Origin: Dipteris shenzhenensis
Lineage: Eukaryota
Strand: one strand, 5' to 3'
Length of the DNA: 64,000 nt
NCBI GenBank assembly: GCA_047967505.1
Contig: CM106538.1
The notes beneath the pieces are model-generated. The model ran no database searches, was not told the DNA's origin, and worked only from the letters and a program-made list of their open reading frames with translations. The position numbers were made by a program, and so were the translations under genes. This document shows positions 13,329 through 64,000 of the stretch, in pieces; position 1 is the stretch's first letter, and each line of letters begins with the position of its first letter.

Positions 13329-15420
13329 AATTGAAAAATGGCTAATGGAAAAGCATCGGAAACAGTGCAATTGAGTGCAGAACTTATAAAATGGACAAAT
13401 GAATACACACGAAGATGCCTAGTAGGGCTACTCAATGATGCAATGCTCAATGGTTTTCCACCCGAATGGCAAGAGAATTGGATAAAGCCACTTTACAAAG
13501 GAGGGAACCGCAATCAACTTACCAATTATAGAACCATAATGGTGAGCTCCACAATGGCAAAACTGTTTAGCACAATAATTGAGTCAGAACTCAGCCTATG
13601 GGCAGAGTTGCATAAAAAAAGGGCCATTGGACAAGCAGGCTTTAGGAAAGCTCACAGCACTGTGGATCATCTGGTCACTATACGAGTTTTAATGGAGGAG
13701 AGTAGGCTACAAGGCAAAACCCTTTTTTGTTGCTTTATAGATTTTAAGAAAGCATTCGATATGGTGCCCAGAAACAGTTTATGGGAGAGAATGTTGCAGT
13801 TGGAAGTACCACACCAATTCAGGATAGCAGTTTTCAGGCTATATGAGAAGGTAACATGCCAACTCAAGGGAAAAAATGGGCTATCAACAGCGTTCTACAG
13901 CAATATGGGGGTGAAACAGGGATGCCCACTGTCACCTACATTGTTTGGCTTATGCATTGATAGACTAGAAGAATCGGTCGAGGAGACACTACAAGAAAAG
14001 AGCATAGACAGCCCTCAAATCTTGGGATATGCTGTATTACTGCTGTTGTATGCAGATGATGTTGTTTTCTTCTCACACACAGCAGAAAAGGTGGGATGGA
14101 TGATGCATGTACTTCATAAATTTTGTGTGGAAAGTGGCTTTGCTGTTAATGTCAACAAAACAAAGATGATGATAGTCAAAACAGTACAGCCAGCAAACAC
14201 ACCAAATATTATGTACAATGGCCAGCAAATTGAAAGAGTGCAAACTTTCAAATACCTAGGGGTGGATATACCAGCAAATCACAGGTGGAGTGATTGTGTT
14301 CAAAGAAGGATTGATGCAGGGTGGGGTAAGTACTATCAGTTTGAGAATGATTGCAGGAATAGTGACACTATAAGATGGGGTATCAGACAAATCCTTTTTG
14401 ATGCATATGTTGTACAGATAGTGTTATATGGGGTGGAAGTTTGGGGAGGAAGTATCTCAGCATCAAAATGGGATGATATTGAGAAGATGCAAAAATCATT
14501 CATCAGAAGGCACTTGGGAATCAAAATTACCACACCCTACTCAATCATGCTTCTAGAGACTGGCACCAAACCAATTGAAATAAGGGCATTGGAAAGAGTT
14601 TTTAAATACATCAAGAAGGTCAAGGCCATGGACATACACAGACTACCAAGAAAGGCATGGAAAGCAAGTAGAAGACTTCAAAAAACAAATAAGAGTAAGA
14701 TACTATCCTCAGGATGGTGGCTAGATATTCATGGCTGGTTCCAAAGGTGGGAAGTTGCCTCATATTTAGATAGCCCCTCAGACAAAATGGATGAGGAGGC
14801 ACTGCAAAAAGCGCTCCTTGAAGCATTGCATCACAAATGGCAATCAGCTAAGAAAAGAACTAAGTTTGAATACTATTGCCAACATATTAGTCCCAGCTAT
14901 TGGAGCACATATGCTCAAGCAAAGGACAATGTTCAAAGATACATAAGCATGCCCATACCTATTAATGTCAGGCGTAATATTGCAAGTATGCGTACCCGTT
15001 CTCATATGCTAGAGGTGGAGAGAGGAGCCTGGGGAGATACTTCAAGAGATCAATGAATTTGCCAAATGCGTGATTTGCAGGACGTGGAGACAGAAGCACA
15101 TGTTTTATTGACATGCCCACAGTATGCCCACATAAGGAAAGATTTTCAGAATGTCGTAGAGAGGCACTCAAATCTTGTGAGCCTACTCACGCATGTACAT
15201 CCTCCTATCTTGGGCACATATATTGGTAGGATTCTTAAGCACAGAGAACAATGCACGATGTCGTAGGCTATAAAGCAGTGATACTGTGTTACTTTATCAC
15301 CCCTTCTCTTTGGGGGACAGAGACTTCCTTTTTTGTATCTTCTCTGATCAGATGAGGTCCCATGGGTCGTTTTTCGGCCCCCAGAGGACGATAATACAAC
15401 ATTCTATTCTATTCTATTCT
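13329..15420 (+). mobile_element. 5'-truncated non-LTR retrotransposon (RTE/RTEX-like) in MUB intron 2, with near-intact RT ORF 13338-15266
   Basis: RT motifs QAGFR, FIDFKKAFD, GVKQGCPLSPTLF, LLYADD, FKYLG; one in-frame TGA at 15054 before a C-terminal C..VETEAHVLLTCP motif; (ATTCT)n 3' tail at ~15400-15420; both flanks are (CT)n. Confidence 0.9.
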
Positions 15421-30869: not shown

Positions 30870-32310
30870 CTATGTTCTCAGGTAGAGGTAATCCCAAAGA
30901 ATTCATTGCTTTGTTTGAGTACAAATGGTTAGGTGATATCTCAAGGTAGGAGGAAAATTATTTGAACATATTCCCACAAGCTCTCATAGGAGAACCGTTT
31001 GATTAGTACTACAAAATGGATGTGGAAACACAAAGCTCATGGCCCATGCTATGACAATATTTGTAGTCACTCATAGACTAATAATGGATCTCCATCAGAG
31101 TGTGTCATCCACAAATTTTGGCAATCACGAAAGATTAGACAAAGGGATTCAAAAACCGCATTTCCAAGGGTGGTTCAAAAGAATTGGGATATAGTGATAG
31201 ATTACTTCTACAAGCTTAAAAATACTATCATAGAGAGAAATCTGTCACTTATAGAGCACCATTTATTCAAAAGTTTTGTCAAAGGCTTGCATGAAGAAAT
31301 TAAGAGCAATTGGATTACTGTAACTATAAAACTATATCAAAAGTATATGATGCCGCAATAATGATTGAAGAATCAATTGAGAAGGATCGGAAAAGGATTG
31401 AAGCAATATTAGAAAGGCAAGTTTCCAAATTGAATAATGACACAAGTGAAGGCACTCTTAACTCCACTGATGCACATAGTGTAAAGCTTATAGAATCATC
31501 AAACACACTAGGCAATAATGAGGGTAATTTGGCAATGGTTTCAAGAGAAACCACTTTCACTAACATGTGCACAATGGAAAGTCAAATAACAAGGAAAAAG
31601 GGAAAAAAGAAGAAAGGAGCTAAGAGAGGTAATGTGAATGTGCAATCAATTAATGACCCAAAACCAACCCTTACAAAAGTAGATTGCACAAAGAGGGAAG
31701 AAATCCAAAGCATTACACTAGAAGGTTGTAACACATGTGTCTTGGGTGATGCAAGCCCAAAGAGTGGCATTCACGAACATCTCAGTTACTTGGGCTCTTC
31801 AAGTACGACACTTCTGCATGAAAAGGATGTGCAAAGCATCCTCTGTGATAAATCTCAAATCTAGGTGCCCACCATGGAAGAAGAATTACATGTTGGCCAT
31901 GTACCAAAGGATCCCCCAAAGACAACTACAAAGGTACAACAGTCGGATCCAGTCTCTTATCAAAACCCTCTAAGACCTATTTTTGATACATTCAAGAGGG
32001 AAGAACAAGAGAGTATAGGCCCACCACAAGATCTGAAACAACTCAAGCTATTTTGCAAGAGCATGTTCAACTAATGCACGAATTCCAAAATACTTGGCAT
32101 CAACAGTTGACATAGCTCAAGCAACAGCTACAACAAGAGCAGAATCAAAAGAATAAACTTAGTTCATGCCTGGTAGAGCAAAATAATGAGATAAAGGACT
32201 TAAAAGAAGAGCTCAATAAACTCAAACAAGTGCTAGCGATTGATACTAACCCATGTCAAAGATCTACACAGTTTGACAGAATTCAAAAGGGAGAGTCAAG
32301 AATATCAAGA
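30870..32310 (+). pseudogene. Retrotransposon gag-like ORF remnant without adjacent pol
   Basis: MFSGRGNPKEFIALFE...IFPQALIGEPFD*YY...SW, then FVKGLHEEIK...ISKVYDAAIMIEE (retrotransposon gag-like), then a low-complexity/coiled-coil tail. Confidence 0.55.
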
Positions 32311-32698
32311 TGACACAAAGACTCTTGCCTGGCAAGGGTCAATGCTGACTCTGCTACTAATGTGGCACTGGTTGAACTAACCCAAGGTCAGATTGACCTC
32401 TAACCATGGTTTGATTGACTAACCCCAAGGTCTATCTAACTAAACCCAAGGTGTGGTGATGTATAAGGATGGTGTGGCTATGGGATAAGCTGATGATGTG
32501 ACTGATTTGACACATGGCAATTAGGATAAGGCCTAATCCTCCTCACCCTCCATGCCTGTTGGTCTGCCCCCCTTTCCTCCTCTTCAACTACTGGTCCTCC
32601 CTCCCCTATCCCTCCTCCTCCTCGCCCTCCCTCTTCTTGCGTGTTGCTCCTTCAAGCCTGCATCTCCACACCTTCTCCTTCTCTACACTCCTTTAGTC

Positions 32699-35594
32699 AT
32701 GGCACCATTCGAGGATGTCTCCAACAAGTACCAGGTTCACTTAGAGTTGGAGGTTGAATATGCAAGCACACATAGTCTAGGATTGAGGAGATCTTCCAAA
32801 ATCCATAGTCTTCGTTTGCAAGGAAATAAGCATCTCAACCTTTGAGTAGAAGGATCCTTGTATCCTTTAGATCCTGCCGACGAAAAGAGCCCTCCTTTCC
32901 ATACAATGCATGAACTAGTTTGGTTTGTTGGAAATGGACGTGCGGGGTTGCTTGGTTATTGCAATCGGTTAAACAATGCTCATTCAATGGCTATGCAAGC
33001 AAGTGAGATGTGCAGAGCCCAAGCAGAGATGCTAGCACATTTAGGAAATAGCACCATTGTTGCAATGCATAACTCTATGCAGGATCTTCAAAGGAAGAAC
33101 CGAGATCTTCATGATAAAGCCAAAGCATTGGACTTGGAGCGACATAAATTAGAAGAGTCGCTCTGTAAGCTAGCTGAGTCCAAAAAAGGCTTGGAAAGAT
33201 CTATATACAATCAAGTTCGATGAGCCGTAGAGAAGGAACGAGAGAAGGCAGAAGAACGAGTGCAAAAGATGAAAGAAACACCTTTGGGATTGAAGGAGAG
33301 GAAAAGAAGGTACTTACATAACATCGATGCATTGGCACCCACTGGTGGTGCTAGAAAGAGGAGAGTCCGGGCTACAAGGTTGGTTATCAAATGTTCCAAT
33401 GAGATTACACTCTTTTGTGCTACACTATTTGTGACTAAGTTTTCATTGTGTTCTTCTTTAGGAACTTCATGGAAGATGTGATGGGAAGAACGGACGGGGA
33501 TGATATTAACTGTTCATATGCTCTAGCAAGTTTATTGAAGTCAAGCGATGTCATTGGGATACTAAGGGACCCAAGACACAAGCGCCTACGTGTGCAAGTT
33601 GCTGAAGAGGTGATGAAGGACTTCAAGGATATTGTGGATGCAAAGGAGATGCTTGTAGCTTGTGATGAGCTTGTGATATTGCCGGTGTAAGTCGTGAAGC
33701 TTACACATCTATTTTCAAAAATTTCAAGTCTACTATTTTGGGAAAGTATAAGAAGTCTACAGTGCCCCTACCCACACCTTGGTCTAAGAGACGTTCACGG
33801 CGAGAAACAAACCAATGTGCAAGAGAAATGCTTGGAGGGTACCATTGCGTAAGGGGCACAATGACTTGGAAGAGTAAAAAGAAATCTGGCTTGCAAACCT
33901 TTGAGATGAATGCTTTCAACAATGTCTACTTAGATGTTGAGAAACTGCAACAAGCAATGGTCAAATTCTATGGCATGAAAGAAGATGGTAAGAGGAAATC
34001 CATTATAGCATTGCACTTTACTAGTTCATTTCCTATATCATGTTTATCCTAACAATTTTTCTCTTTTGTTGTACAGATTGCAATGGAAAGCTCATATTTG
34101 TCATCAAAATGGATGAAGCTCAATTGGTGAAAGAGCACAAGTTAGAGAGAGTCAGCATCTGCATTATGAATAAAGCCTTAGCCTTTGTTCAAGGGGACGA
34201 AGAAGTAGAGCAAGATTTCTCAGTGCAATTAGAGAAAGATATATGGTGGCTTGCAGCATTTGAGACTCCAAAAGAGTGCCATGAGACATTGAAGTGTGTT
34301 CTAGATAGAATAGGAATCCCATCGATGATCTGAAGACAAGAGGAAGGGCAAACATTGATAGTCGATGGCCATGGAACCTTTCAAGTTGAATGGCATCTTG
34401 CTGGTGATTTGAAAACCCTCAACTTCTTGCATGGTTGTGATACAGGGGAAAATGCAATGAACACATGCCTTTATTGCGTGTGTTCGCAATGTAAGCAAAA
34501 GGCTGGCTTACAATGGGAGAATGGCATTCTATCTTGTAGCCAAACGCAAGCTCCTAATCACGACAAGAAGGATCCAAAGTGGGATCCCATCTTGCCCATC
34601 CCACTTGAGAGAGTACACATATGTACTTTACATGCAAAACTGCGCGTACTTGATAAGTTGTTGTATTTGCATCTTGTTTATGCTTGGAATTTAATTCCGC
34701 AAGAAGTATCCACACGGTGCATTGCAAAAGCTGAGGAGTTGCTGTTAGAGATGGGATTTCGTGGAGGACATGTCAAACTTAAGGAGGATAAGAAAATGTC
34801 TGGGGCACAAACATACACTATCTCAAAGTAGTTTGGGTTGGGAATACTGGAAGCATTGTGTGAATGCACGACCAATAAGGCTTCTCATCCTCAAGTAGCA
34901 ACTTTGAGAGCTAAAGTATGGACAAAGGTAGATGCATTGATAAAATTGCTTCGCCAAGTTCAAATCGATGAGATGTATTATGAAAGGTTTAGGATGGCTG
35001 TGAAAGAGTTTATGCAATTAATGGTGAAAGCATGGGGGGAGTCGCACATTATGCATTACATGGTAATCTTGGCACCGTCGTAATATTTAGCACTTGCTTT
35101 ATAAACAGTTTTTGTTGCTGAAATGATTCTCATCATGTTTGCAGCATATTCTCTATGCACACGGACCATGGTTTGTACAAAATTGGGGTCCTTTATCCAT
35201 TTGGAATACACAAGGCATGGAGAAGTCACACTATAGAGCCAAGGCAACCTACTTCAAGAAATCAAGGCATGGTGGTGGTGTCACTCGTAGCAATGCATTG
35301 CATGAGATGTTCAACTAGTTTTTTAGATGTTTACTAGGAAGGACTTTGAAGTCTGAAAAGGCAAAGGCATCAGAACTTGCAAAAGCAATTCAAATTGTAT
35401 CAAAGAATAGAAGACATAGTGCTTGGAAAGCATCCATAGGGAGTCGAGGAGTCGCACGTTGGTTGCAAGCTAGAGTGAGAGAAGGGAGTAGATGGGTCCA
35501 ACCACCAACAGAAGCTGTATACAAATATGAAATAAATATATTGCTTATTTTGACCACAATTTGTGTACTCTCTTTAATATCTTGCTTATTTTGA
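32699..35594 (+). pseudogene. RAG1/Transib-like DDE transposase, 4 exons (introns 33379-33461, 33988-34076, 35063-35144), inactivated
   Basis: Spliced product has IKMD (D 34112), KECHETL (cf. RAG1 ESDHETL), AGDLK (D 34406), CLYC (34466-34477), ICTLHAKLR, HYM|HILYAHGP (HxxxxH) and GPLSIWNTQGMEKSH (E 35220; cf. RAG1 GSIGAWASEGNESGN). All three introns are GT..AG with consistent phase. Several in-frame stops and a frameshift near 33685. Exact 3' end uncertain. Confidence 0.85.
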
Positions 35595-35629
35595 CTACAA
35601 TTTTTATACTTACACGACGTTGGGAAAAG

Positions 35630-35835
35630 TGGGGACATGGTGAAGGAGGGGGGAGAGAAGGAAGGGGCATGGGGCGGGGCAAGGGGAGGGGTGGAGTGGT
35701 AGCAAGGGTGGGGGGAGGGGGGGTATGGGGAAGGGTGATGGGTGTGGGCAGGGCAAGTAGGGGGAGGGCAATGGGGGGGGGAGGGCGACAAGGGTGGGGG
35801 GGGTTGGAGGGGTTAGGGTGGAGGAAAGGGGCACG
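35630..35835 (+). repeat. G-run-rich spacer (G-quadruplex-prone) between transposase and H3 gene
   Basis: Many G3-G8 runs separated by short loops. Confidence 0.7.
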
Positions 35836-35838
35836 ATG

Positions 35839-35910
35839 AAACCCTAAATGTAATTAAAAGGGATGTCAAAACATGATGTGCCTATATAAAACGTTTGAAA
35901 AAAACCCTAA
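35839..35910 (+). promoter_or_regulatory. Core promoter of the H3-like gene: TATA box flanked by two telo-boxes
   Basis: AAACCCTA at 35839 and 35902; cctatataaa at 35881-35890; ATG at 35924. Confidence 0.65.
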
Positions 35911-35923
35911 CTCTCATTATTCA

Positions 35924-36945
35924 ATGGCAAGAGTGAAGAACACTGCTAGACCCACTGGACGCCGCCTCCACCCTTCCTCCTCTAGCTCCACCACCTCCAT
36001 GGCATTTGTGCACACGAACCTACTCGAGTCCAATGGTGCCTCCCCCGACTCTCGTGAGTTGTCCCCCAACTCTCGTGAGGTCTCCCAGGACTCTCGTGAG
36101 CCCTCCCCCAACTCTCTTGAGTATGAGCCTTCCCCTCAGCCTTCCCCCCAGCCTTCCCCTCAACCTTCCCCTCAGCATGAGCCCCAAGAGCATGAGCCTT
36201 CCCCTCAGCCTTTCCCCTAGCCTTCCCCTCAGCGTCAGCCTTCCCCCCAGCCTTCCCCTCAGCACCAGCCTTCCCCTCAACCTCAACCTCAGCCTGACCC
36301 TCAACCTTCCCCTCAACCTTCCCCTTGGCCTTCCTGTCCCCATGAGAGCCCTCTCCCAATCGAACAAAATGTGTTCAATAACCTCCCGAACATAGAGAGG
36401 CTTCCTGAGGGCCAATAAACTGCCAGGAAGAGAACCATCTTCCCTCTCCCGGTTATACAGTCCATTGCAAAGATGATCCATGTGCCCATGAGGACGGTAA
36501 AGCAGACGCTGAGGAAGCCCCATCCCAAAGAAAGTCAAAGCTCAAGACGTCAGCGAGAGGAGGACTCGGAGGAGGATCAATGCAGACAAGAGCAGCAAAA
36601 GAAGTTTATGGTAGACAAGAGGTCATGGGCTCATGTTTGGGTACCTATAAGGACCGCACCAAGAGTTAGGAAGCCGTACAGAGCAAAGCTAGGAGCGCGG
36701 GCCCTGAGGGAGATCAGGCAAATGCAGAAGACCATTGACAACTTGATCCTGCGTTCCAACGTGTGGTATGGGAGATAGCACAGGGGTACAAGGATGACAT
36801 GCGATTCAGCACAGGAGCTATGAGGGCACTCCAGGAGGCTACGGAGCAAGTGACCACCGCTCTATTCGAGGATGCCAACTTGTGTGCCATCCATGCAAAG
36901 CGCGTCATGGTCATGGACATGACTGCAGTAACCAACCATTTTAAT
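35924..36945 (+). pseudogene. Histone H3 variant with long Pro/Ser/Gln-rich N-terminal tail
   Basis: N-terminus MARVKNTAR; (PSPQ)n repeats; histone fold [26 protein letters not shown] / [52 protein letters not shown]; in-frame stops at 36218 and 36416, and a small frameshifting deletion at ~36750. Confidence 0.9.
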
Positions 36946-37344
36946 GTAAGTTTTGAATTCTATCAAATTCTGAAGGAATTTCACTGTCGCGCAGAAGAGA
37001 AAAGTATTCGGCACGTCGCCAGGACCCCATTCTATGCCCAAATTTGTGCCGTGGCAGGTTTTGGGCTTTCTGGGGTCCTGGCAATGGTGAAATTCCTTTA
37101 GGATTTGACAGAAATGAACTTTTGATACCCAAAATTGGTGAAAATGATGCTAAATTGGCTAAAAATGTATTAAATTAACACAATTAAAATGATGGAGAAA
37201 AACTATCATCAAAGACTTAAACAAAACACAATGGAATTCATGACGACCAATGACAACTTAAAACAAATAATAAAGACATGTAGTCATGTATCCATTAAAA
37301 TATCCATTTAAATATATGTTTATATATACAAAAGGCCTCACAGG

Positions 37345-38744
37345 CTATCTTTCTTCTTGGCTAGTTCGAGTACATTGAGAATAGGGGTCTTTGAATCTAG
37401 TCGCAACAGCACTAACATCCTCCTCTCCTACTGCCAAAGACATAGCCATTGCCGTCAATGCACTGCCATGAATGTTCGATCCAAAAGCATTGATAGCAGC
37501 TAGGCGGTGTACCAAAATGACTTTGTCGGTATTCTGAGTAATGTTGGAGTATCTGATAGCGCACGACAAAGCCTTGCACTTCAGCAGCTTCGAAGGACCT
37601 CGAGGAGAAAATTTGTTGTGAAAGATCACGATATGCTCTGCGACTTTGCCAAGGTAATGGGCCAAAGAATGATCTCGCCCAAATGCGTTGTGAACATTAC
37701 CCCGTCAAGATGAGAAATCATCAAGCTCAAATGCATCTTGCAACAATTCAATAAACATTAGAAGACTGACAAAACAAATTATACTAAAAGAACATCAAAA
37801 TAAAAAATATTGTTCGAACTTACTACTACAACGTCGTCGGCTTCTATCCCTTCCTCATTTGCAATGTTGATGGAACCAGGTGCTGTGTGATGTTCCATTT
37901 GGGAGGTGGACGCTTTCTCCTAACCTGTGTTGGAGGTGGAAGCTTTTGCATGAGAGGGTTGTGCATTGTATACGGACATGTCTGCATCCCTCATTGAAAC
38001 CAGCATCGTCAAGAGAAAGTCTTCCATTGTATGGTCTTCGGTACCTAAAACCCTAGGATCTTTGACACTTGTGTCAACATCGAACCCCGATAGGACTTCG
38101 AGTGCCTCATCCTCTTGTAGTCCAAAAAGAATCTCTATGTCATGGAGGAATATGTACTCTTCTCCATCAATGATGAGGAGGGACAAGGACCATAATTCTG
38201 AGTCTGAATCAGTGGTCTCCGATGCAAATTCTTGCTTACTGGGGGCTCTTCAAGTAGGCTCAATGCTTGAGCTGCTTCCATCTCCTCTATTGGATCATCA
38301 AGACTCTCTTCCATGTAGATGTCCGAGTCTAGTCTAGTGACCAGATCAGCAGTTCTACTGGAGGGGGTGCTAGACGATGAGGCTTCTTCCTCTAAATTTC
38401 CTTCTTGCGTTTAGGATGTCTTGAACTTCGACTGTCCTAAACCCTTCGTCTATAAGGTTGTCACAAAAGCGAGCCAAGCACTTTACAAACTTGGGTTCCT
38501 CTACGAACAGATACTTTATGTAATCTATGGGAACCCATCTCTTTGAAGAGTGGTCAAGTGTATAGGCAAAATTTGAGAAATTATCTTGCATGTAAAGGAT
38601 GAGATCTAAGAAATCATCCTTGGCTCGCATATATGTGCCTAGGACATCTAAAGTCCTATCAAACACTAAAAATAGCTCTTCCTCATGATCTGCAAATGCA
38701 GTTCATGAGATGAAGTCATGGAACGCAGTTCTAGTTGAATCCAT
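37345..38744 (-). pseudogene. Unknown-function gene remnant within the transposase cluster
   Basis: ATG at 38744 in frame with ORF 38370-38666; successive minus-strand coding-like ORFs 37920-38186 and 37345-37665; putative intron ~37737-37823; TATA-like 38845-38854 and telo-box 38857-38864 upstream. Confidence 0.55.
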
Positions 38745-39020
38745 GGCAAATAGCAGTTGGAGGGAGTAACTTCTGAGGACGGGAGTTTCTATGGCTCTCT
38801 AAATGTGACAGTGAGAATGTGATGTAAAAAGGGCTCTTACCCCTTAATATATATCAAAACCCTAAAAATTAAAATTAATCATAAATTCCCCAAATTTTTT
38901 GGAAAACATTTACCATGAACTGAAAGGAGAAAACATTAAAAGAAATAACATTTTATTTAATTGTCCATCATCTTTTAAAGCAATAACTAGGATTTGACAA
39001 ACAACAAATTAAATGCTGCA

Positions 39021-40303
39021 CTAGTCAAACACATTGTTAGCAATCTTCAAAGTTGCAAGAGGAATGAAATTGGCACTATGCTTGCACTTCTCCACACGGC
39101 GGCGGATCTTACCACCATTTAAGGTAAAGTAGAAGGACTCTGACATGCCATCCTCCATGACCAATAGGTGTTCTTGCACATCCCTTAGAGTCCATTGCGA
39201 TGTGACATTCACATTCTTGACATCTCCCTCTTCAACATCAATAGACAAACTTATCCCCGTATTGTCTTCATCATTAGAGTCTAGGGGAAGCCACTGGCAA
39301 TTCGCTTTCTTCTAGCGCCTGAAAAGCTAAATACAACATTTGGCATGACAAATGGTATCTAATAACCACATTGTCTTTACATGCGTGACATTGAAACACA
39401 TCACCCTTTTGGTCACCTGACTTGGTTCCCCAATTCATCCCAAGTAAAACTTCAAGAGCATTTTCATCTACACGCTTGCAGGACCACATAATTTTTGTTC
39501 TATGCATATGTATATTCTGAAATAAAGAAGCAAAAATGTGCAGAGGCATAAACCAAGATAACGTTGCCCATTTGGATCCAAATGTAAACTTCATGGCCAT
39601 GCCCACATCCTTTGCAATCTTGTCCTTATACGATTGCAATGTCCTCGAGTCCACATTGCTGCAATCCATGTCTTGAATTTGTGGTGGTGCAATGGTTTGC
39701 AGTCGGCCATAGCTTGATGATGTCATTGGAGTGATGTATGTTTCATTATACCAATACACATTCTTCATTTGCAAGGAGGCCAACTTCTCCCAGGCATGCA
39801 TTTGCTTACCTAAATCCTCATGAATCGCAGTGAACTTGCCTATGAATGATTCAACTGGTTCCCACTCCTCGAGGTTCGAAGGGAAAACATCTGCCACCAT
39901 GAATAAGAGCTCTTAGAAACCAAAAACAAAATTTCCAAATGGACTCATTACACTTACAGGTGAGAAAGGTACATAGATAGAAAGGCTCACAGTGTGATGG
40001 TATCCTAGATTGATTGAATGATGGAGGAAGCTACATATCTTTTCCCATGTAAACATGTTGCACTTTTGCGAGCCATCCTTTCTTGCCAAACTTAAACTTC
40101 AAGATGCACCCCTTCCACTCATGCAAGATGTCACCTCTCTTGCTCTTGGGAAGCTTATGTGGACCTTTGGCCAATCCTTTCATCACTATCCAGTCATTTA
40201 AGCTGTAGGTGCAAGGGATTCACTCATCCAATGCATTTTTGGTGTTGTGGAAGACACAAGAGGCCACAGCATTGTGTGGTCTTGTAGCCTTTCTCCTCAC
40301 CAT
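39021..40303 (-). pseudogene. BAH-like domain protein with possible C-terminal ubiquitin-like fold (intron 39891-39957)
   Basis: MVRRKATRP...TYSLNDWIVMKG...EWKGCILKFKFGKKGWLAKVQHVYMGKDM...YVFPSNLEEWEPVESFIGKFTAIH follows the BAH consensus pattern; C-terminal ISLSIDVEEGDVKNVNVTSQWTLRDVQEHLL..FYFTLNG is beta-grasp-like; two stops and one frameshift near 39280. Confidence 0.6.
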
Positions 40304-41419
40304 GCTTGTAGAGGTTGCAATAGCAAGAATGGGACTCCTACACAAGGCAATGCAGCTCCAACAGAGGCACAAAAGAGGGAGAAGGAGAGGGATAGAGGGA
40401 TGCATCAATTTTACGAGCAAAAACCTATGAGCAGGTTTATCCGAGCGTGTTTTTCAAGAGATTTTTAAAAATGTTTTTCTTTAGGAAACATGGTTTTTAC
40501 ACTTTTATTTTCACTAGAACTAGATCCCTTTATCATAAAAATATACAGACTAGTCACTCATTCATTTTTACACAACATAATTTTCTTATTTGGAGACATC
40601 CCTTTGTACCCCTGTTATTACCTTAAAAAAGTGTTGATTCCTTTAAGAAACATTCCTCATAATCACTCTCAATGTAATAATACTATGCATATATAATTAC
40701 TTATTAACACATTTATATCATATGGCAATATCTTTTTAGTGTTTTTATAGCATATTTATGGACATATTTCTAAAGAAGTTTAAATTACTATAAATAAGTA
40801 TTAACTTAGGCTTATATATCACTCTCATAAAATACATGTAATATTTAATACTATATATGAAAGATTTTCCAAAATATAACTCCATAGATGTGCTCAAATG
40901 GGGTGTTCCGATCAATTTGAGTGGTTGAATGACTATATTTGGACATTGGATATGAAAGTTATGTCACTTTTAAAAGTGTTGTCCAAGGTAGTTTCGCCAG
41001 CGAAACTACCTTGGGAGACTTGCTTCAAAGGGGTTTCGCTGGCGAAACTACCTGGATGGCTTGCTTCAATGAGTTTTCTTTGAAGAAACTCTGTCATGAA
41101 GATAGGTTGAGAGAGGGTTTTCAATGTCACCCCCTATTAAGTAAAAGTTGTAAGAAGGATCATAAGGGAATTTTCATAGAGAAGTCTACTCTACATGTGG
41201 GTTTCTTCAAAAGCCATCCCATTATGCTCTCACCATTCCTACAGATTCACCTAAAGATTTTTGTATAAAATAGGCATTGCTATAATACTTTGCATATTTC
41301 TAAGTGAAACTATGTTTTCTTCTGATCGATTTTTGCCATATTTATGCATAGTTGGAAGCTTTTTTTTTCCTTCGCTCGGACGCTCGGAAGATTTCGCTCA
41401 GAAAATGCTCGTCCCCGGG

Positions 41420-41677
41420 ATAGAGCAGCAGCAATAGAGACATAGGAGAGGGAGAAGGAGAGGGACAGAGTAGCTCGAATAGAGGCACAAAAGAGGGAGA
41501 AGGAGAGGGATGGAGCAACAGCAATAGAGGCACAGGAGGGGGAGAAGGAGAGGGATGGAGCAACAGAGGCACAGGAGAGGGAGAAGGAGAGGGATGGAGC
41601 AACAGCAACAGAGGCACAGGAGGGGGAGAAGGAGAGGGACAGAGCAGCTCCAACAGAGGCACAAGAGAGGGAGAGGG

Positions 41678-41700
<23 letters not shown>
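41420..41700. repeat. Purine-rich minisatellite, ~36-42 bp unit x ~6
   Basis: Unit approximately gagggagaaggagagggatggagcaacagcaacagaggcacagga; one related unit at 40350-40400 upstream of the BAH-like gene. Confidence 0.85.
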
Positions 41701-41712
<12 letters not shown>

Positions 41713-42145
41713 GAGTTGCAGCAAGCAGGCCAGAGCAGGAGGGAGCAGAGAAAGAGGGGGAAGAGGAAAAATGCGTGGGATTTGTTTCAAATCTGAGTGA
41801 TTTGGCAGGTTGGACTAGAACAGTGGGGGGCAGAGGCCATAGAAAGAGGGAGGGGAGAAGAAAAATTTTCCATTTGGGCCCTACCATCCCATTGAATGCA
41901 GTTTTGGGCTCATGTGGGGGAGGTGCACCTGGTAGGAGGGTCAAACATGGGTTAAGAGGGAGGGGATGTTTTGGGTGGTCCCTAGTGTAAGGGGAGCAAC
42001 CAATAGGGGCTCTCTGTAGGCCTGCCCACCCTCCACCTCAACATACCATTGCCCCACGCCTTCTAGCACTCTCATTGGTACACCTCAAATCACTCTCTAA
42101 TCCCTTGAAATTAGGAAACACTAATTGGAGGCCCTTTTGAGACCC

Positions 42146-43385
42146 CAATTCTCCCCTAATGTGCATGAGCTATTTGCTATGCTGGCATTTGCTGTGTGGA
42201 GGTAGACATTAGTGGAGGTCGATGCAGAGGCATCGACTGGAGACATTGTTGAGGTCGCTCGGGAGAGCTAAGTCATTGCAGATGAAGGTCAGTCAGCCAG
42301 TGGTTGCCACGGTCAGCTCATCGGAGGCGGTGCATTGGCTGGAGCATGGGCTACCATCGCTATAGAGTCATGGAGGTTTAGCACTGTTGATGGCCCATCC
42401 TGAGCTTCGTTGCACCTTGTCTGTAGGTGGAGACACCTATCCTTTATTGTGTGAAGCCCGTTGGGAGCGATTGTGCATGCTCGTTGGTTAATGGAGCTGC
42501 TCACTGATCGACGGAGGATTCTTTGGAGTGCTACAAATGATGATGCTATAGAGACTACTAGTTGGAGAAGGCGTCTCTCTGTCAATGTGTAGCAATTCAT
42601 TTGTGTAGCAACCGAACTGCTCATTTGTGTCAATCGTCTAATCCTTATCTCTATTGTTGCAGTGTAAGCTGTTTTGTGTATGGAGCCTTTGAAGCCTTTG
42701 AATGAGGCTTTGCTCTATGTAGAGGCTGCAGCCTTTAACACTATTCGAGGCTTGCCTTTGTTGGAGATGCTTGGAGCATATTTTGAGTCTCCATCTCTCA
42801 AAACTCTCCCAAATCTCTCAAAGCATCTCTCTCTTTCTCATAAGAACAGATCTCTCAAGAAGAATGCCTCACTATTTCTCTTTCAACAATCGGCAAAGTA
42901 ATGAATGGAAGGAATACCTCTCTTTCGCTCATGAAAGAAATAATTCTCAATGTATGAAATCAATGACAAAAATTCTCTCTCTCATGAAATGAATGGAAAT
43001 GTCTCTCTCAATGGAAGTGAACTTGCATGAAGAACACTCAAGAGGAACTCTCGATCTCACAATCTCTCAATCACTCTCGCAAGGATCTCAATGCCTCAGC
43101 AGAAGGCAAGGGAGCTCTGATACCATGACAAAATATGAAGAGGGGAGAGGAGAAGAGTGGAGATGAGGAGAGAGGGCACAGCTAGAGAGCACACCACAAA
43201 TGATTAATTGTACACTAGATATAGTTGAAAAAATAGAATATGTAAAAACCCATTTAGGGTTAGGGTTAGGGGATCTAACCCTTTCCTTTATAGCACTCTA
43301 TTGGGTTAGTGCTATGCACATATGATCACATGATGGTGCTATGCACACATGATCACATGATGTTGAGCGTGAACTCTCAACAACA
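42146..43385 (-). mobile_element. Non-autonomous LTR-type unit: LTR (43385-43126), PBS (43125-43114), non-coding internal region, PPT (42157-42148)
   Basis: Minus strand TG...CA LTR followed by TGGTATCAGAGC (tRNA-iMet PBS); ends AGGGGAGAAT-TG. Confidence 0.7.
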
Positions 43386-43389
43386 AAGA

Positions 43390-44826
43390 TGTGTCATTAG
43401 TATTTTTTGGTATAGTGGGCTTGATTTCCCTAGTTCTCATATTGATTTGCATATTAATATCCTGATTCTAGATTGTGATCCTATCTGTACCCCAATTATG
43501 GATTATTGACGTCTCCCAAAGCCATGTTCTTCCCAACAATATTTCGTATGCGGTCGATCCTTGGGAAAGATCCAATATGGTGATTGGTATAGTGACTTTG
43601 ACTGCCGCGATTTTTGTTGGCACATTGTTAGCAATTCCCAATGGCTTCATCTCATTGATGTCGGCTAGGCATATGTTGAATGTGGCATTCCTCATTGGTG
43701 TTAGTCCCCATTCTTCATAGATATCCCTTGCAAGAATGTTGACACCTACCTTGCCATCCATTATTGTAGGGTATTGACCAATGGCTTTATGCTCTAGCAG
43801 GATAATTACATTTTTTATGTCATTTATATAGCCTTATGTTCCTCTTTAGGTGGTGGGAAACATTGTGTTGATTCTATCCAACCCTTGAAATTTTCCCACA
43901 TTGTACAAAAATTTCTCAATAAGGATCCAATTGACATTGTGATGGGACAACTGATTAAGCTGGCTAAGGTGGCATCATCCAATTGGGGATGAGTTGCATG
44001 CGTTGCCACACTTTGTTTCTTTATGGCAAAAATGAGTTTTTGTCATGCTGCTTCCTTCTACTTCCTTGTTATCACTAGTACAGGTTGGGATACAATGCTT
44101 GGTGTAGCCACACTATGACTCTCAATGCTAATGATTCCATGGGGTAAATCCAACTTTGCTTCATTGGGTTGTGGAGGCTTTCCTCTGAGTGGGCAAATCC
44201 ATGCACGGATGCCCAACTCGGCTTCCTTTGAGCGGATTAGATGGTTTCTCCACATCCCAAAAGACTTGATGGGTGCTTGATATGTCACTGGTTTTACTTG
44301 ATTGGCATCCAATGGAATGAGTCCTTCAGCACCATCCATGTAGTACATGGGGTATTGTGGTTCACACTCATATTGTGGTTCCAAGTTCTGAGGAAGGAGT
44401 TGTTGCACTAGATTGTTGAGCAAGATTAGGGACTCGAGGATACTGTGTAGGATTGGGATTTCTTAGTAGTTGAGGTGCTTGTGTCCTCATGGGGATGGGA
44501 TGGAGTAGTGGCACGGGGTGCAAGTACTGGCTGCTTGTAACTGGAATTGGTGCCTGTTGGTATTGTTGGGGCCGGGGTTATGCAATCCTCATATTGTAGA
44601 AGCATGTGTTGACTTTGTGGCTTGCAACATTGCAAACGGCACACCATAATCTTGGGGATTGGGCCACTTCTGGTGGGTTGAGTCTGTTCCTTAGGATTGG
44701 GCACTCATTGGCCATGTGGCTGCCATACAGTGTCGGCACCATATATTCTCTCATCTTGGGTACTATGGTGGTCGAGAGACTCGCAACTTTTGCTCTATGG
44801 CCTAGATTATTTCTTCCTTCACCCTT
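43390..44826 (-). mobile_element. Ty3/Gypsy gag-protease fragment
   Basis: Decayed Zn knuckle (..GSHMANEC) and aspartic protease-like IMDGKVGVNI...YEILLGRTWL...IIHNW. Confidence 0.7.
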
Positions 44827-46173
44827 TGTTGTGGATTCATCTCAACATCATGTGCTATCATATGTGCATAGCACTAACACAGAGTGCTAAAAGGCACAAG
44901 GGTTGGAAAACGTAACCCTATAGGGATTTGTACATTTTCATTATTTTCAACTAAATCTAGTGTATAGTTAGTCATTTGTGGTGTGCTCTCTAGCTGTGCC
45001 CTCTCTCCTCATCCCCACTCTTCTCCTCATCTCCTCATCCTCTCATCTCATCATCTCCACTCTTCTCCTTCTCCTCTATCCATATTTGTTCATGGTATTA
45101 AAGCACGTGGTCGTTCCTTCCGCTGAGGCGCCATCGGTGAGAGATCGAGAGGTCCTTCTTGATTATTCCATTCACTTTCATTGAGTGAAATTTTCGTTCA
45201 TCTCTTTTGAGAGTTTGTGAGAGATCTAGTGATTGAGAGAGAGATTTGTGAGTTCTTTTTTCGTTCATTTCCCTTATGAGAATTCATTGAGAGGCCTTTG
45301 AGTATTCATTTCTGTCATGTCAGAGAGAGAGGCTTGTGAGAATTTTTTGAGTTCATTGAGAGAAAGGCATTGAAATCCATCTTCTTTTCTTTGAGAGCAT
45401 TCTGTGTCTGAGAGAGAATAGAGAGGTGTTCTAAGAGAGAGGCTTTCTTGGGGGAAGAGAGAGTGCTTTAGTCTTTCATTGAAATCCATCTTATTTCCTT
45501 TCAAATTGAGAGAATTCTGTGTCTGAGAGAGAATAGAGAGGTGTTCTAAGAGAGACGCTTTCTTGGGGGAAGAGAGAGCGCTTTAGTCTTTCATCAACTC
45601 CAAAATCTTTCAACACAGTAGCAGCCTCAAATGAACTCACAGCAAAGAGCTTAGGCTATGGGTGGTTGAGCCACAGTTCTACCTTCATCCTACCTAACAA
45701 TAGATACACCATGCACAACAATGCCGAACGACTTCTTGCCGAAGGTTTCAACACAATGTGCAAGCCAAGCCTCCAATTACAAGGCATAGACCACAACATA
45801 GCCACCTCAACAATGCTTCAACCTAAGCCTACAACCCGGTGACCTCCACACTCTATCTACAACCATCCAAGGCAACAAGCTATAGCATGCCAACATGCCA
45901 TAATAGTAGTGCGATGACTCCTACAACAACTTCTAGCTTCAGCAACCATGACAAGAAATCAATGCAATGAATGGCAGCTATGCTATCCAAATGCCCTGAC
46001 ACAATGACCTACTACCTTAATGCTCCAATGACCTACCGGCTCAAGCATACGACTATGACATAACACTACAAAGAAGCTCAAAACAACTAGACAAGGCTAT
46101 CTTCACCGAGCATAGCACTAGGTTGGGTTAATACCGAGCACCTTTTTTGAGTTAGCCTTGGGTGAGGGAATTG
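44827..46173 (+). mobile_element. Second copy of the same non-autonomous LTR-type unit: LTR 44827-45092, PBS 45093-45104, PPT ~46159-46171
   Basis: LTR is the inverted homologue of 43126-43385; PBS tggtattaaagc; internal region related to the first copy; ends GAGGGAAT-TG. Confidence 0.7.
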
Positions 46174-61119: not shown

Positions 61120-64000
61120 TGTACGGCCAGGGAACTGGCCTGGTGGCCACCAGTCACGGCTCCCTGTGCCCACTGGTCCGGGCAGTCTGCCCTATTTTTT
61201 CTTTTCGTTTCTTCATCACTCATGGAAGGAAATGGATTATGACAACCACCCGGAGGTGGTTGACTGTTTACATTCTATACAAGAGCCTTTCTCTTTCCCT
61301 TATTGAAGGCTACGAGGACAGCTATTTCAGCCAGTTTAGTGAGGTCTCTAAGAGTGGTTGGGTTGAACATTTTAACCTCATACGTCACGTTTAGGGTTTA
61401 CGGATGAAAGATATATCTTTCTTCTATCTTCCACATTGTTTCCTGGTAACTCTAAAGAGAGTTTTCCAAACCTGGCTGTAAATTCAGCAATACTCTTAGT
61501 ATCAAATTGCTTGAACCTTTCCCAATGGAAGGTCAAGTTCCTTGGTGGCTTTCAGTTGTTCCACAAACTTAGCTCAATCAAGGTAGGCTCTCTTCCTATT
61601 TGTAACAATGACCACCACGTTAAAGCATCATTTTGTAGATGCAATGTAGCAAGGGAAGCTTCTCTTGATCGGTCTTTCCTTCATTGGGCGAATTAAAGCT
61701 GAAAATGGCAAATACAATCAAGGATTTTATGAGCCTTCCTTTCTTCATCATATTCAGGGAATTCAATCTCTCTTGTGATTGAAAGTTGATTCTTTTTGGA
61801 GGAGTGCTCAGCTCTCCCTCTCCAAAATTGAGAACCCTCTTTGTTCCTAGCTTTGTCATTATGAACTGTTCTATCATATTACTAAGTTGAGAAACCAGCT
61901 TCTCAATGGGAGACCCTTCCTCCTCTTCGTATTTGGATTATCTATGTGTGTGGAATTTTGAGCTAAAGGTTTAAACTCATTACCTTGCTATTGGGTGGAC
62001 TCATTTCTCCCCTCCTTTCCAAAAGAGAACTCCTATCAAGAGGTTCTTGTTGGAAAGAGGGTAACTCTATTCGTGGATTATCATAATCAAGGTGTGTTTA
62101 AGTGTTGGGATAAAGGCCAATGGCCTAGTATATACCCCTTTGTACCATACATACATAATAAGAGCTTACCTTGATCTGGGTGAGTTAGCACCCACAATTT
62201 CGGTGTTCTCCTTTTCTTTGTTGCTCTCCGATAAGACTTCCTCTCCATCAACTGGTATCAGAGCTTGGTTGAGCGAAGCCAACAAGGAGACTGTAGCATT
62301 GTGGTGTTGCTGTGTCAAGAGCCCGAACTTGTTGCGTGGAGTCTCCTACTGCTCGTGGGTTGCCCCTGGGAGCTGTATTTTGACATATACTAGCTCGTTT
62401 TTACTGTTTCAGCCATATATATCAGGTTGCCTCGATTGTTCCAGCAATCTATTGCCTTGTTTGAGCAGGGGAAAAGAAATATTATCCATCTATGGTCAAA
62501 AACGACTTGCTGCTCTGCAATTCCAGCCACTGGAAGTTGCTTTTTTGGGACCTGAAAGCAAAAACGTCTTTTGCTTGTGGCGGACTCCAGTTGATCAAAG
62601 GCAGCTGGTACATTCAGATTTTAGTTGGGTTTATGCCTTCAAGTTGATGCGTATTAAGCCAAAGGTTGGCTGAAAGTGATTGCTTACAATTGATGCATTT
62701 TGAGCCTTTGTTTAGCTGAGAAAGTAAGCATAAGTGAATAGTGTTTTTCTGAAGCTGTCTTGTATCCCAGGAAGGGATTATTTTTTGATGGCTTCGGCAT
62801 CAGAGAATGCATTGTTTAACATTGAGAAGTTGGATGGCACAAACTTCTCCTATTGGAAGGAGCAAATCTACAATGTTCTGGTGCAGAAGAAGCAAGTAAA
62901 GCCTATAAAATGCAAAGGCATAAAGCCAGAGGATTGGAAAGATGATGAAGAGTGCAAGGAATTAGATAAGCTTGCACGCTCTACGATCATGCTCACACTT
63001 TAAAAATCGGTATATTTCAATGTCAAAGATACTGCAGGTGGTACCTATGGTATGTGGACAAAGTTGCATGATCTTTATGAGAAGCAGAGTGCCGCTTGTC
63101 AAGTTTATTGGCTGAAGAAACTCATAGATCTTCGCATGGAAGAAGGGACTTCCATGTCTAGCCATTTAAATGAGTTAACACAATTTTCAGTCAACTTTCA
63201 GCTCAGAAAATTGCCTTTGATGACTCAGTTAAGGCAATGTTCTTATTGGTCACCCTTGCTGAAAGTTGGGACACTTTTAGGACTGCTATAAGCAATTCAG
63301 CCCGTGCAGGAGGCCTTACAAGTAATGATGTTGAGAGTAGCCTTCTCACTGAGGAGGTAAATAGAAAGAACACTACTGGAACTAAAAGTTCAAGTGCTCT
63401 CAATGTGAGAGGGAGGTCATATTTCAGAGGGAAATACCACGACAGAAATACAAGCAAGTCTAGAAGCAAATCTAGAGGAAAATCCCATGCCAAAAAGGAT
63501 TTGGAATGCTTCTATTGTGGGAAGAAAGGCCATTTCAAAAAGGATTGCTACAAATGGAAGAACAATAAAGGCAAAGGCAAAGGCAAAGCTAATGTGCAGC
63601 CCAAGAAGGAAGAGAAATCCACGGTCAATATAGAGGAAGTGAATGCCATAAGTAATAATACTGATGAGGGTGACATTCTTTATGCCTCTATGTTTGAGCA
63701 TGCTTTTCTTGTGACTAGTGATGATGCATTGTCACAGAATTGGATACTAGACTCAGGGGCATCTTTCCATGTCACTCCACATAGGGAGTGGTTTACCATT
63801 TATGATGCAGGAAGGAAAGGAACCGTGAGACTTGGAAATGATTATCCATGTGACATTGTTGGAGTGGGAGATATTCACTTGTCTCTTCCTAATGGTTCCA
63901 CATTTGTACTCAAGAAATTAGCAAAGGGTCACTTGTGATTGCTAGAGGTTTCAAGCATGGAACGTTGTACTCAATGCATGTGTTAGGCGTAAGAGATAAT
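61120..64000 (+). mobile_element. Ty1/Copia LTR retrotransposon 5' part: LTR ~61120-62250, PBS 62253-62264, gag-protease from 62788
   Basis: TGGTATCAGAGC PBS after ...CATCA; IEKLDGTNFSYWK; Zn knuckle CFYCGKKGHFKKDC; protease WILDSGASFH; stop at 63001 and frameshifts. LTR start tentative. Confidence 0.9.

Follow-up and report, generated by a model that had tools for sequence, protein, structure and literature searches.

Four disabled genes lie packed within 7.6 kb of a 64-kb stretch of Dipteris shenzhenensis DNA (contig CM106538.1 of assembly GCA_047967505.1; the whole stretch of 64,000 nucleotides will be referred to as the window), and they raise the question of whether a transposase gene, a gene for a histone H3-like protein and two further genes form one mobile unit, and of what kind that unit would be. 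A preliminary description, made from the letters alone, had read positions 32699-41987 as a plant RAG1/Transib-like transposon in which an element-encoded H3 and a BAH-type chromatin reader stand in for a RAG2-like partner. Our analysis leads to a different division of roles. With a probability of about 0.75, we consider the region to be a dead copy of a DNA transposon that moved by cut and paste and held several genes, with a core made up of a transposase of RAG1/Transib architecture and a second protein, ORF2 (ORF, open reading frame), and with H3 as cargo.

The four genes occupy positions 32699-40267 in the order transposase (+), H3-like (+), ORF2 (-) and fourth gene (-) (Table 1). Stop-to-stop ORFs and homology agree on this order and on the strands, and none of the four is a chance ORF. 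The preliminary description was borne out in these points as well as in calling the genes similarly decayed, as stops and/or frame changes were found in all four, and the TATA and telo-box promoters were found where it had placed them, at the H3-like gene and at the gene which it had left without a name (ORF2). Since all four genes are broken, the window copy cannot act. Seven matches to AAACCCTA were counted in the window, for which 2.7 are expected as a whole, and four of them fall inside 32699-40267.

Homologues of the transposase were readily detected, with a best E-value of 5e-96 and 36 proteins at E ≤ 1e-3; the only named relative is a protein of the streptophyte alga Klebsormidium, and the closest database cluster comprises 77 members with 69% identity from short ENA contigs. 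At least five premature stops interrupt conserved exons (32843-45, 33221-23, 34331-33, 34829-31 and 35316-18); the TGA at 32843-45 replaces the W of 'DLW' found in relatives, and the stop at 35316-18 ('EMFN*FF') the W of their 'FNW'. Some of the frame changes are introns common to relatives; database proteins also end after 'THYMV', and in the window an intron likely follows 'HYMV' at ~35070-35140. An N-terminal region with 'HxDLWxDGxxYPxDP' and a coiled coil, a core with the motifs KMDE..., AGDLK, CLYC, HICTLH and HYM / HILYAH, and a C-terminal exon with QGMEKSH are each conserved among the relatives. Invariant in the alignments are the D of KLDE, the D of AGDLK, HxCTLH and H(4)H (HILxxH), together with CIYC/CLYC (C-x2-C) 20 residues past the second D, and the E of QGMEKSH is located 20 residues past HILxxH. 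The window copy retains all of these motifs. Their spacings are near those of D708/C727 and H942/E962, which we take to be the corresponding positions of RAG1.

The fold was modelled with AlphaFold2 for a 580-residue homologue (P0003, 39% identical) from 39 sequences and without the last exon, yielding a predicted local distance difference test score (pLDDT) of 77 and a predicted template modelling score of 0.73. All 43 Foldseek matches of this model at E ≤ 1e-3 were RAG1 or the amphioxus protein BbRAGL, followed by HzTransib at 2e-3 to 2e-2, with the first unrelated fold at E 0.11. VIA gave the same picture, with Z-scores of 14.9 for RAG1 (392 residues aligned), 13.0 for BbRAGL and 12.7 for HzTransib, the next match being the P element with 7.7. 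On this fold evidence, the preliminary assignment of the transposase as RAG1/Transib-like holds; it is a DDE enzyme, and its model agrees with the RAG1 core, in which zinc-binding and helical modules are inserted into an RNase H fold. The family further shows the C(2)C and H(3-4)H signature, which the available text of Kojima (2025, PMC12730594) gives as the mark of the CMCT clade, comprising Transib, RAG1, EnSpm and Lanisha. By its predicted fold and its motifs, we classify the enzyme as a member of the CMCT clade with an architecture of the RAG1/Transib type. It may or may not be a Transib transposase in the strict sense, since no sequence similarity was detected and the ends of the element were not located. 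Pfam models of the EnSpm type matched none of 15 transposase members at E ≤ 10.

Linkage was evaluated in 34 metagenome loci of 1.3-6.1 kb obtained from a scan with the transposase alignment. The transposase has ORF2 as its neighbour in 11 of these loci, nine times convergently (L005, L007, L014, L018, L021, L023, L024, L027 and L028) and twice in tandem (L016 and L020), and an H3-like ORF is located directly downstream of the transposase on the same strand in three (L011, L012 and L013). Thirteen of the loci are informative in that they extend at least 500 nt past the last transposase match; the next downstream gene in these is ORF2 (nine loci), H3 (three loci) or none recognised (one locus, L009). 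These counts characterise ORF2 as the regular partner in the family and H3 as a recurrent cargo with a fixed slot. In some lineages, that of the window among them, the H3 variant is placed between transposase and ORF2 and has a promoter of its own. Positions 712-3076 of L008 and 1-2363 of L009 are 99.7% identical, the similarity ending ~100 nt past the transposase C-terminus, and L009 continues for a further 1.27 kb without ORF2 or H3; the stop could be an element end or reflect a transposase-only form. Intact ORFs were found among relatives such as L005, L011 and L012. The linkage at other loci on which the preliminary description had made its reading depend was therefore observed for H3, in the same position and orientation as in the window, and for ORF2, but not for the fourth gene.

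ORF2 is the more widespread of the two partners. In the window, the pieces 38702-38373, 38249-37923 and 37704-37348 match ORF2 of the loci with phmmer E-values from 4e-9 to 5e-8; the second piece contains the motif IDGxxYxxLxDIxxLFxLxEDEAL, the third a C-terminal 'KVILV...A..AFG' domain, and the gene is damaged by an early stop and several frame changes. A library of 1.84 billion proteins contained 104 cluster representatives of this family at E ≤ 1e-3. Among 103 members analysed, Pfam recognised two, one as RVT_3 and one as a C-terminal SET fusion (P0232, 26.2 bits against a cut-off of 22.4), which represents a second chromatin-related module in the transposon family; a separate Pfam scan of ORF2 gave no family. 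A model of ORF2 (P0193, 77 sequences, pLDDT 71.8) shows three confident small helix/hairpin domains, for which Foldseek found no match at E ≤ 1e-3 and VIA found at best the Dachshund DNA-binding domain with Z 6.7, which is at noise level. The predicted fold contains no kelch propeller such as the six-bladed one of RAG2 and is therefore not RAG2-like. Across the transposon family, ORF2 is the conserved accessory protein and is usually encoded convergently.

The histone nature of the cargo was confirmed by Pfam (Histone, PF00125) with E-values of 3.8e-16 for the window copy, 7e-34 for L012 and 3e-18 for L013, and the fold of the window copy is 57-67% identical to H3-type sequences. The window copy is damaged by stops at 36218 (TAG) and 36416 (TAA), a frameshift near 36755 and the loss of the normal stop; the reading frame is intact in L012 and, as far as the contig end, in L013. 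A 12-bp repeat in 18.7 copies (36126-36334) swells the tail into PSPQ repeats, and the minus-strand frame over this repeat forms a spurious 173-residue Arg/Gly/Leu ORF. R2 and K4 are kept in all four element-borne H3 tails, and the ARKS motifs (K9, K27), as defined by the canonical H3 P0070, occur in none of the four. Comparing L011 with L012, the nonsynonymous and synonymous divergences of H3 amount to dN 0.26 and dS 1.29, and the dN of the transposase to 0.27; these values indicate that purifying selection has maintained the cargo in this pair of loci, its divergence keeping pace with that of the transposase.

The ancestry of the cargo was addressed with a tree of 76 sequences, comprising 72 of 120 database matches which passed a simple motif filter and the four element-borne H3s. 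Placing these four in one clade was not rejected and scored slightly better (approximately unbiased test, p-AU 0.52). As the branches are long, the tree allows one ancient H3 capture with later losses, and no more than that. The H3 tree itself lacks resolution. A giant-virus origin of the histone was considered and dropped, as viral genes were absent and the histone lies inside the transposase-ORF2 unit. Other H3-like proteins of 187-194 residues came from long ENA contigs (P0069, P0071, P0073, P0077 and others); P0069 has an unusual N-terminal extension and shares 'VWEIAQ' (W for R) with the 429-residue H3-like protein P0068 and with the H3-like gene of the window.

The fourth gene, which sits between ORF2 and an array of 45-bp repeats, has a relative, P0038, that matches with E 1.7e-76 and 57% identity; as P0038 spans both window ORFs 39912-39274 and 39311-39021, these were once a single frame. 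P0051, a read-through ORF of the P0038 cluster, shows an exon-intron-exon structure with an upstream exon 68% identical to 40267-40034. The closest cluster (61 members, 56-68% identity, short ENA contigs) parallels that of the transposase. Pfam detected no family, BAH included, in the window ORFs of the gene or in P0038, a scan which omitted the exon-1-bearing P0051. For residues 1-80 of P0051, the ESM Atlas listed BAH in seven of the ten nearest structural clusters, with EBS-like, chromomethylase and BAH-PHD clusters among the seven and the aligned part labelled BAH in five; the template modelling scores by query of these were 0.61-0.66, every row being marked as under the bar of the tool, and the whole-protein pLDDT was 0.56. 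An Atlas feature search with P0038 returned Ubiquitin_3 clusters at 0.81-0.84, below the lead threshold of 0.9. A BAH-like N-terminal exon and a ubiquitin-like (Ubl) C-terminus are thus structural leads only, and a fair guess. A search for the gene in the 34 loci gave no match even at E 10; it is connected with the element by indirect evidence and is probably a lineage-specific cargo.

Further evidence for a repeated unit came from DNA runs. Contigs of the low-coverage run X2, placed on the element at 80% likeness, yielded 545 pieces covering all 30 bins, and 21 of the 30 bins were covered in run X1. From ≥99% identity down to <90%, the four identity classes of run X2 contained 36, 104, 184 and 221 pieces; the coverage together with this spread demonstrates that every part of the element is repeated and that the copies are of mixed age. 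One run X2 contig (depth 7.1, 8 extra nucleotides at the joint) connects 37165 to 40493, skipping ORF2 and the fourth gene, and probably represents an internal-deletion copy which keeps both flanks of these two genes. Taken with the linkage in the loci, the cluster behaves as the single repeated unit that the preliminary description had proposed.

The borders of this unit are less distinct. Contig depth drops to 1.2 in 32162-32492, which suggests a left edge near 32.5 kb, and run X1 contigs pile up at 32493-32823 and 40106-40436. A CT-rich stretch upstream of the transposase may be a subterminal repeat; its likeness to the 45-bp array is weak, as the sequence is of low complexity. On the right, the array may constitute the corresponding subterminal repeats, and the AT-rich high-copy stretch between the array and a single 45-bp unit may be a nested small element; this stretch has a summed depth far above that of its neighbours and contains a 28-nt palindrome (40986-41053). 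Inspection of eight loci for ends revealed subterminal repeats and no clear ends. Short repeats in both orientations lie just past the ORF2 start in L005 (4939-5190), L024 (5051-5291) and L007 (5009-5257), a motif of ~17 nt occurring at least five times in L005; by analogy, these look like subterminal binding-site arrays as in CACTA elements. Repeat and alignment searches did not confirm the right end at 41987. A 15-17 nt match containing CACAGT (32264/42578) was examined as a terminal inverted repeat (TIR) and rejected as chance because its flanks are inverted rather than direct. Rfam gave no match in the window.

Table 1: Position, strand and characteristics of the element's genes, promoters and flanking repeats within the window.
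Feature	Position	Strand	Characteristics
CT-rich stretch	32537-32653		Upstream of transposase ATG; resembles 41509-41633 array, inverted; alignment score 52 over 117 nt
Transposase pseudogene	32699-35594	+	ATG 32699; homology to ~35510, ORF pieces end 35594
H3-like promoter	35839-35915	+	Telo-boxes 35839-46 and 35902-09; TATATAA 35883-89
H3-like pseudogene	35924-36945	+	ATG 35924; MARVKNTARP N-terminus, Ser/Pro tail, histone fold
ORF2 pseudogene	37345-38743	-	ATG 38743; matches ORF2 of loci (phmmer, tblastn)
ORF2 promoter	38846-38864	-	Telo-box 38857-64 (read on +), then TATA box on minus strand
Fourth gene	40267-39021	-	Exon 1 ~40267-40034, intron, exon 2 39903-39021; frameshift near 39315
Single 45-bp unit	40352-40397	+	Upstream of fourth gene; 83% identical to 41425-41470
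AT-rich high-copy 1-kb stretch	40398-41416		Between two 45-bp units; run X2 summed depth 172-675 (bins 40437-41400)
About six 45-bp repeats ending (AG)n	41417-41712	+	Repeat search

Several observations weigh against a RAG1/Transib-architecture transposon with an H3 cargo. The placement of the transposase rests on the predicted fold and on motifs, and the modelled part lacks the exon that holds the third catalytic residue. Pfam contained no family for the window pieces or for 15 members at E ≤ 10, and searches of PDB sequences with two transposase profiles gave no RAG1/Transib match at E ≤ 10. No inverted repeat of at least 16 nt was detected between 31500-32700 and 40200-43000 in this old copy, nor were the CA..TG termini and 2-5 bp target-site duplications (TSDs) of the CMCT clade or CACxxTG-type TIRs found in the window or in the loci, the contigs of which stop short of the ends. 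The shared ends which the preliminary description had anticipated, with TIRs and a 5-bp TSD, were accordingly not seen. The fourth gene is missing from all 34 loci, few contigs of which extend that far past ORF2, and the internal-deletion joint is a single contig with a depth of 7. The transposase tree places H3-bearing elements in three clades amid H3-less ones (three changes), a scattered distribution which would mean repeated loss or repeated gain; in the H3 tree, the lack of resolution and the long branches count likewise. ORF2 carries no assigned function, and a role of the cargo in silencing is something that we infer only. Finally, element-derived RNA was not seen in two RNA runs, 19-24% of each being examined; the sole sizeable pile-up (36861-36899) has canonical-H3 flanks, and a few reads fell on short conserved transposase stretches.

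The explanation that comes closest in weight concerns the novelty of the family and not its anatomy. The window may hold an ordinary old copy of the moss superfamily Lanisha (MT647524; Maumus, McDaniel, Carey, Repbase Reports 2020), and we put the chance of this at somewhat below even. Lanisha belongs to the CMCT clade, and the C(2)C and H(3-4)H patterns given for it in PMC12730594 match those of the window family; the only named relative of the transposase is a protein of a streptophyte alga, and Pfam knows neither Lanisha nor the window family. Lanisha is, however, described as similar to EnSpm, for which there is no structure to compare, whereas the window transposase matches RAG1/Transib. 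Moss proteins are also absent from the 36 transposase matches, a weak objection given that transposon genes are often masked before annotation. With a moss superfamily of the CMCT clade in print, the remark in the preliminary description that it knew of no described plant element with this gene set is doubtful as a claim of novelty.

The remaining explanations change the anatomy itself, and all of them appear improbable. The original proposal was a unit of the ProtoRAG type, with RAG2 replaced by the BAH protein and the element H3 as the chromatin-reading partner; the RAG1 fold, the convergent layout, R2 and K4 in all four H3 tails and the lead that likens exon 1 of the fourth gene to BAH agree with it. 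The loci point elsewhere, as ORF2 is linked in 11 of 34 compared to three for H3 and none for the fourth gene, H3 is absent from nine of the 13 informative loci, and BAH remained under the Atlas bar and undetected by Pfam. The conserved, mostly convergent partner is ORF2, and we regard the RAG2 stand-in as improbable. We rate it no higher that the H3-like and fourth genes are host pseudogenes or nested insertions which came to lie beside a transposase relic by accident. This might explain why no TIRs or TSDs delimit one unit, why none of the 34 loci links the fourth gene to the transposase and why the cluster is surrounded in the window by a mosaic of different repeats. But H3 sits at the same place and on the same strand relative to the transposase in three loci that are independent and diverged, with purifying selection there, ORF2 and the transposase are linked in 11 loci, all parts are multi-copy in run X2, one contig joins the sequences on either side of ORF2 and the fourth gene, and the cluster sizes and divergence of the two outer genes match. 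For H3, an accidental neighbourhood is largely refuted. Least probable is a centromeric-H3-type variant with centromere-directed behaviour. Its long divergent tail, the enlarged loop 1 in L011 and L012 and the fact that several of the best database matches above 186 residues are named CENP-A-like would fit; loop 1 of the window copy is of normal length, the closest sequences by identity (57-67%) are of the canonical H3 type, and evidence for a centromere is lacking.

Returning to the transposon with a transposase-ORF2 core, comparison with known systems shows where the family stands. With Transib, RAG1 and ProtoRAG it shares the predicted architecture over ~390 residues (Z 12.7-14.9), the motif order D, D, C(2)C, H(4)H, E and an accessory gene that is convergent in most loci. 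It differs from this group by the absence of detectable sequence similarity, by an additional, long N-terminal part containing a coiled coil, by the H3 gene, by a host that appears to belong to the green lineage and by a partner, ORF2, that is not a RAG2-like propeller; moreover, neither CACxxTG TIRs nor a 5-bp TSD could be detected. A plant is a plausible host of the family, considering the telo-box promoters and the Klebsormidium relative. EnSpm/CACTA elements, members of the same clade, resemble the family in having two or more genes, which in their case encode a transposase and a DNA-binding accessory protein, and in their subterminal repeat arrays, represented here by the 45-bp units and the short repeats in L005, L007 and L024; unlike them, the family gave no Pfam EnSpm match and no CACTA termini, and its ORF2 belongs to no known family. 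Lanisha, reported from the moss Ceratodon purpureus as a 'previously undescribed' superfamily of plant cut-and-paste elements making up 1-5.8% of the chromosomes (PMC8245031, available text), is alike in being a plant cut-and-paste element of the C(2)C plus H(3-4)H type which classifiers of the Pfam/RepeatMasker type lacked; the main texts, which permit a comparison by description only, do not mention an H3, ORF2 or BAH-Ubl gene.

Histone cargo has a precedent in a hAT element of Pyrenophora tritici-repentis (Manning et al. 2013, PMC3538342), in which a gene for an H3-like protein accompanies the transposase and a central ORF. As described in the available part of that report, it is likewise multi-copy and has a shorter, internally recombined derivative, but it belongs to another superfamily, is fungal and reflects a recent near-identical amplification, whereas the H3 cargo of the window family spans deeply diverged sublineages and shows signs of purifying selection. 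Other transposons known to bring chromatin genes are, according to the text available of PMC12730594, HarbingerS/MuDR with SET in Phytophthora, fungal elements with TET/JBP and VANDAL with VANC. Their cargo, too, plausibly acts on silencing marks, and the ORF2 relative P0232 is itself a SET fusion; the cargo of the window family differs in being a core histone of the nucleosome, with a possible reader, and not an enzyme or a sequence-specific anti-silencer. Our literature searches brought up no report of a histone carried by a RAG1/Transib-like element in plants, and the mentions of Transib in Viridiplantae in the accessible texts were confined to RepeatMasker tables, one of them with a liverwort count of 0.

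Outside the element, the window contains other repeats. Two 121-nt inverted repeats (43147-43267 and 44908-45028, 88% complementary) flank 1.64 kb and belong to an unrelated TIR element, and a related third arm is situated at 952-1026, at a distance of 42 kb. By eye, we recognised a 573-residue ORF resembling a non-LTR reverse transcriptase (13335-15056, +), a retropepsin-like piece with 'ILLGRTWL' (43468-43833, -) and a gag-protease ORF with a CCHC knuckle (63174-63938, +).

How such an element would work can be outlined from its parts. Cut-and-paste movement would follow the Transib route, in which the transposase nicks the DNA, forms hairpins and integrates the element. ORF2 would bind to chromatin or to the DNA of the element, and the subterminal repeats may be its sites. 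Both the H3 variant and the BAH-Ubl product may act on the element's own chromatin, most likely by blunting host silencing based on H3K9/K27 and less likely by steering integration. It is conceivable, though we consider it unlikely, that a deep green-lineage branch of RAG1/Transib-like elements supplies its own chromatin, namely a selected H3 that retains R2 and K4 without the ARKS sites of K9 and K27 and, in some lineages, a BAH-Ubl reader or a SET fusion, and that it thereby packages or marks itself to escape H3K9/K27 silencing or picks its targets. If true, this would echo, with other parts, the way in which the PHD finger of RAG2 links RAG1-type cutting to H3 tails.

Transposases of the RAG1 type are rare outside animals, and a broad screen recovered only 35 Transib transposases, according to its available text (bioRxiv 10.1101/2021.09.26.461848). 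The window family seems to have been missed by Pfam; with 36 proteins, 34 loci and a streptophyte-alga relative, it widens the known range of the architecture of the V(D)J enzyme, and it presents this architecture with a different, conserved partner, ORF2. While the window copy is a relic, L005, L011 and L012 provide open frames which can be used experimentally. With a transposon-borne H3 kept under purifying selection, the family lends itself to testing whether an element can provide part of the nucleosome, and this cargo bears on how transposons may evade histone-based silencing or make use of it.

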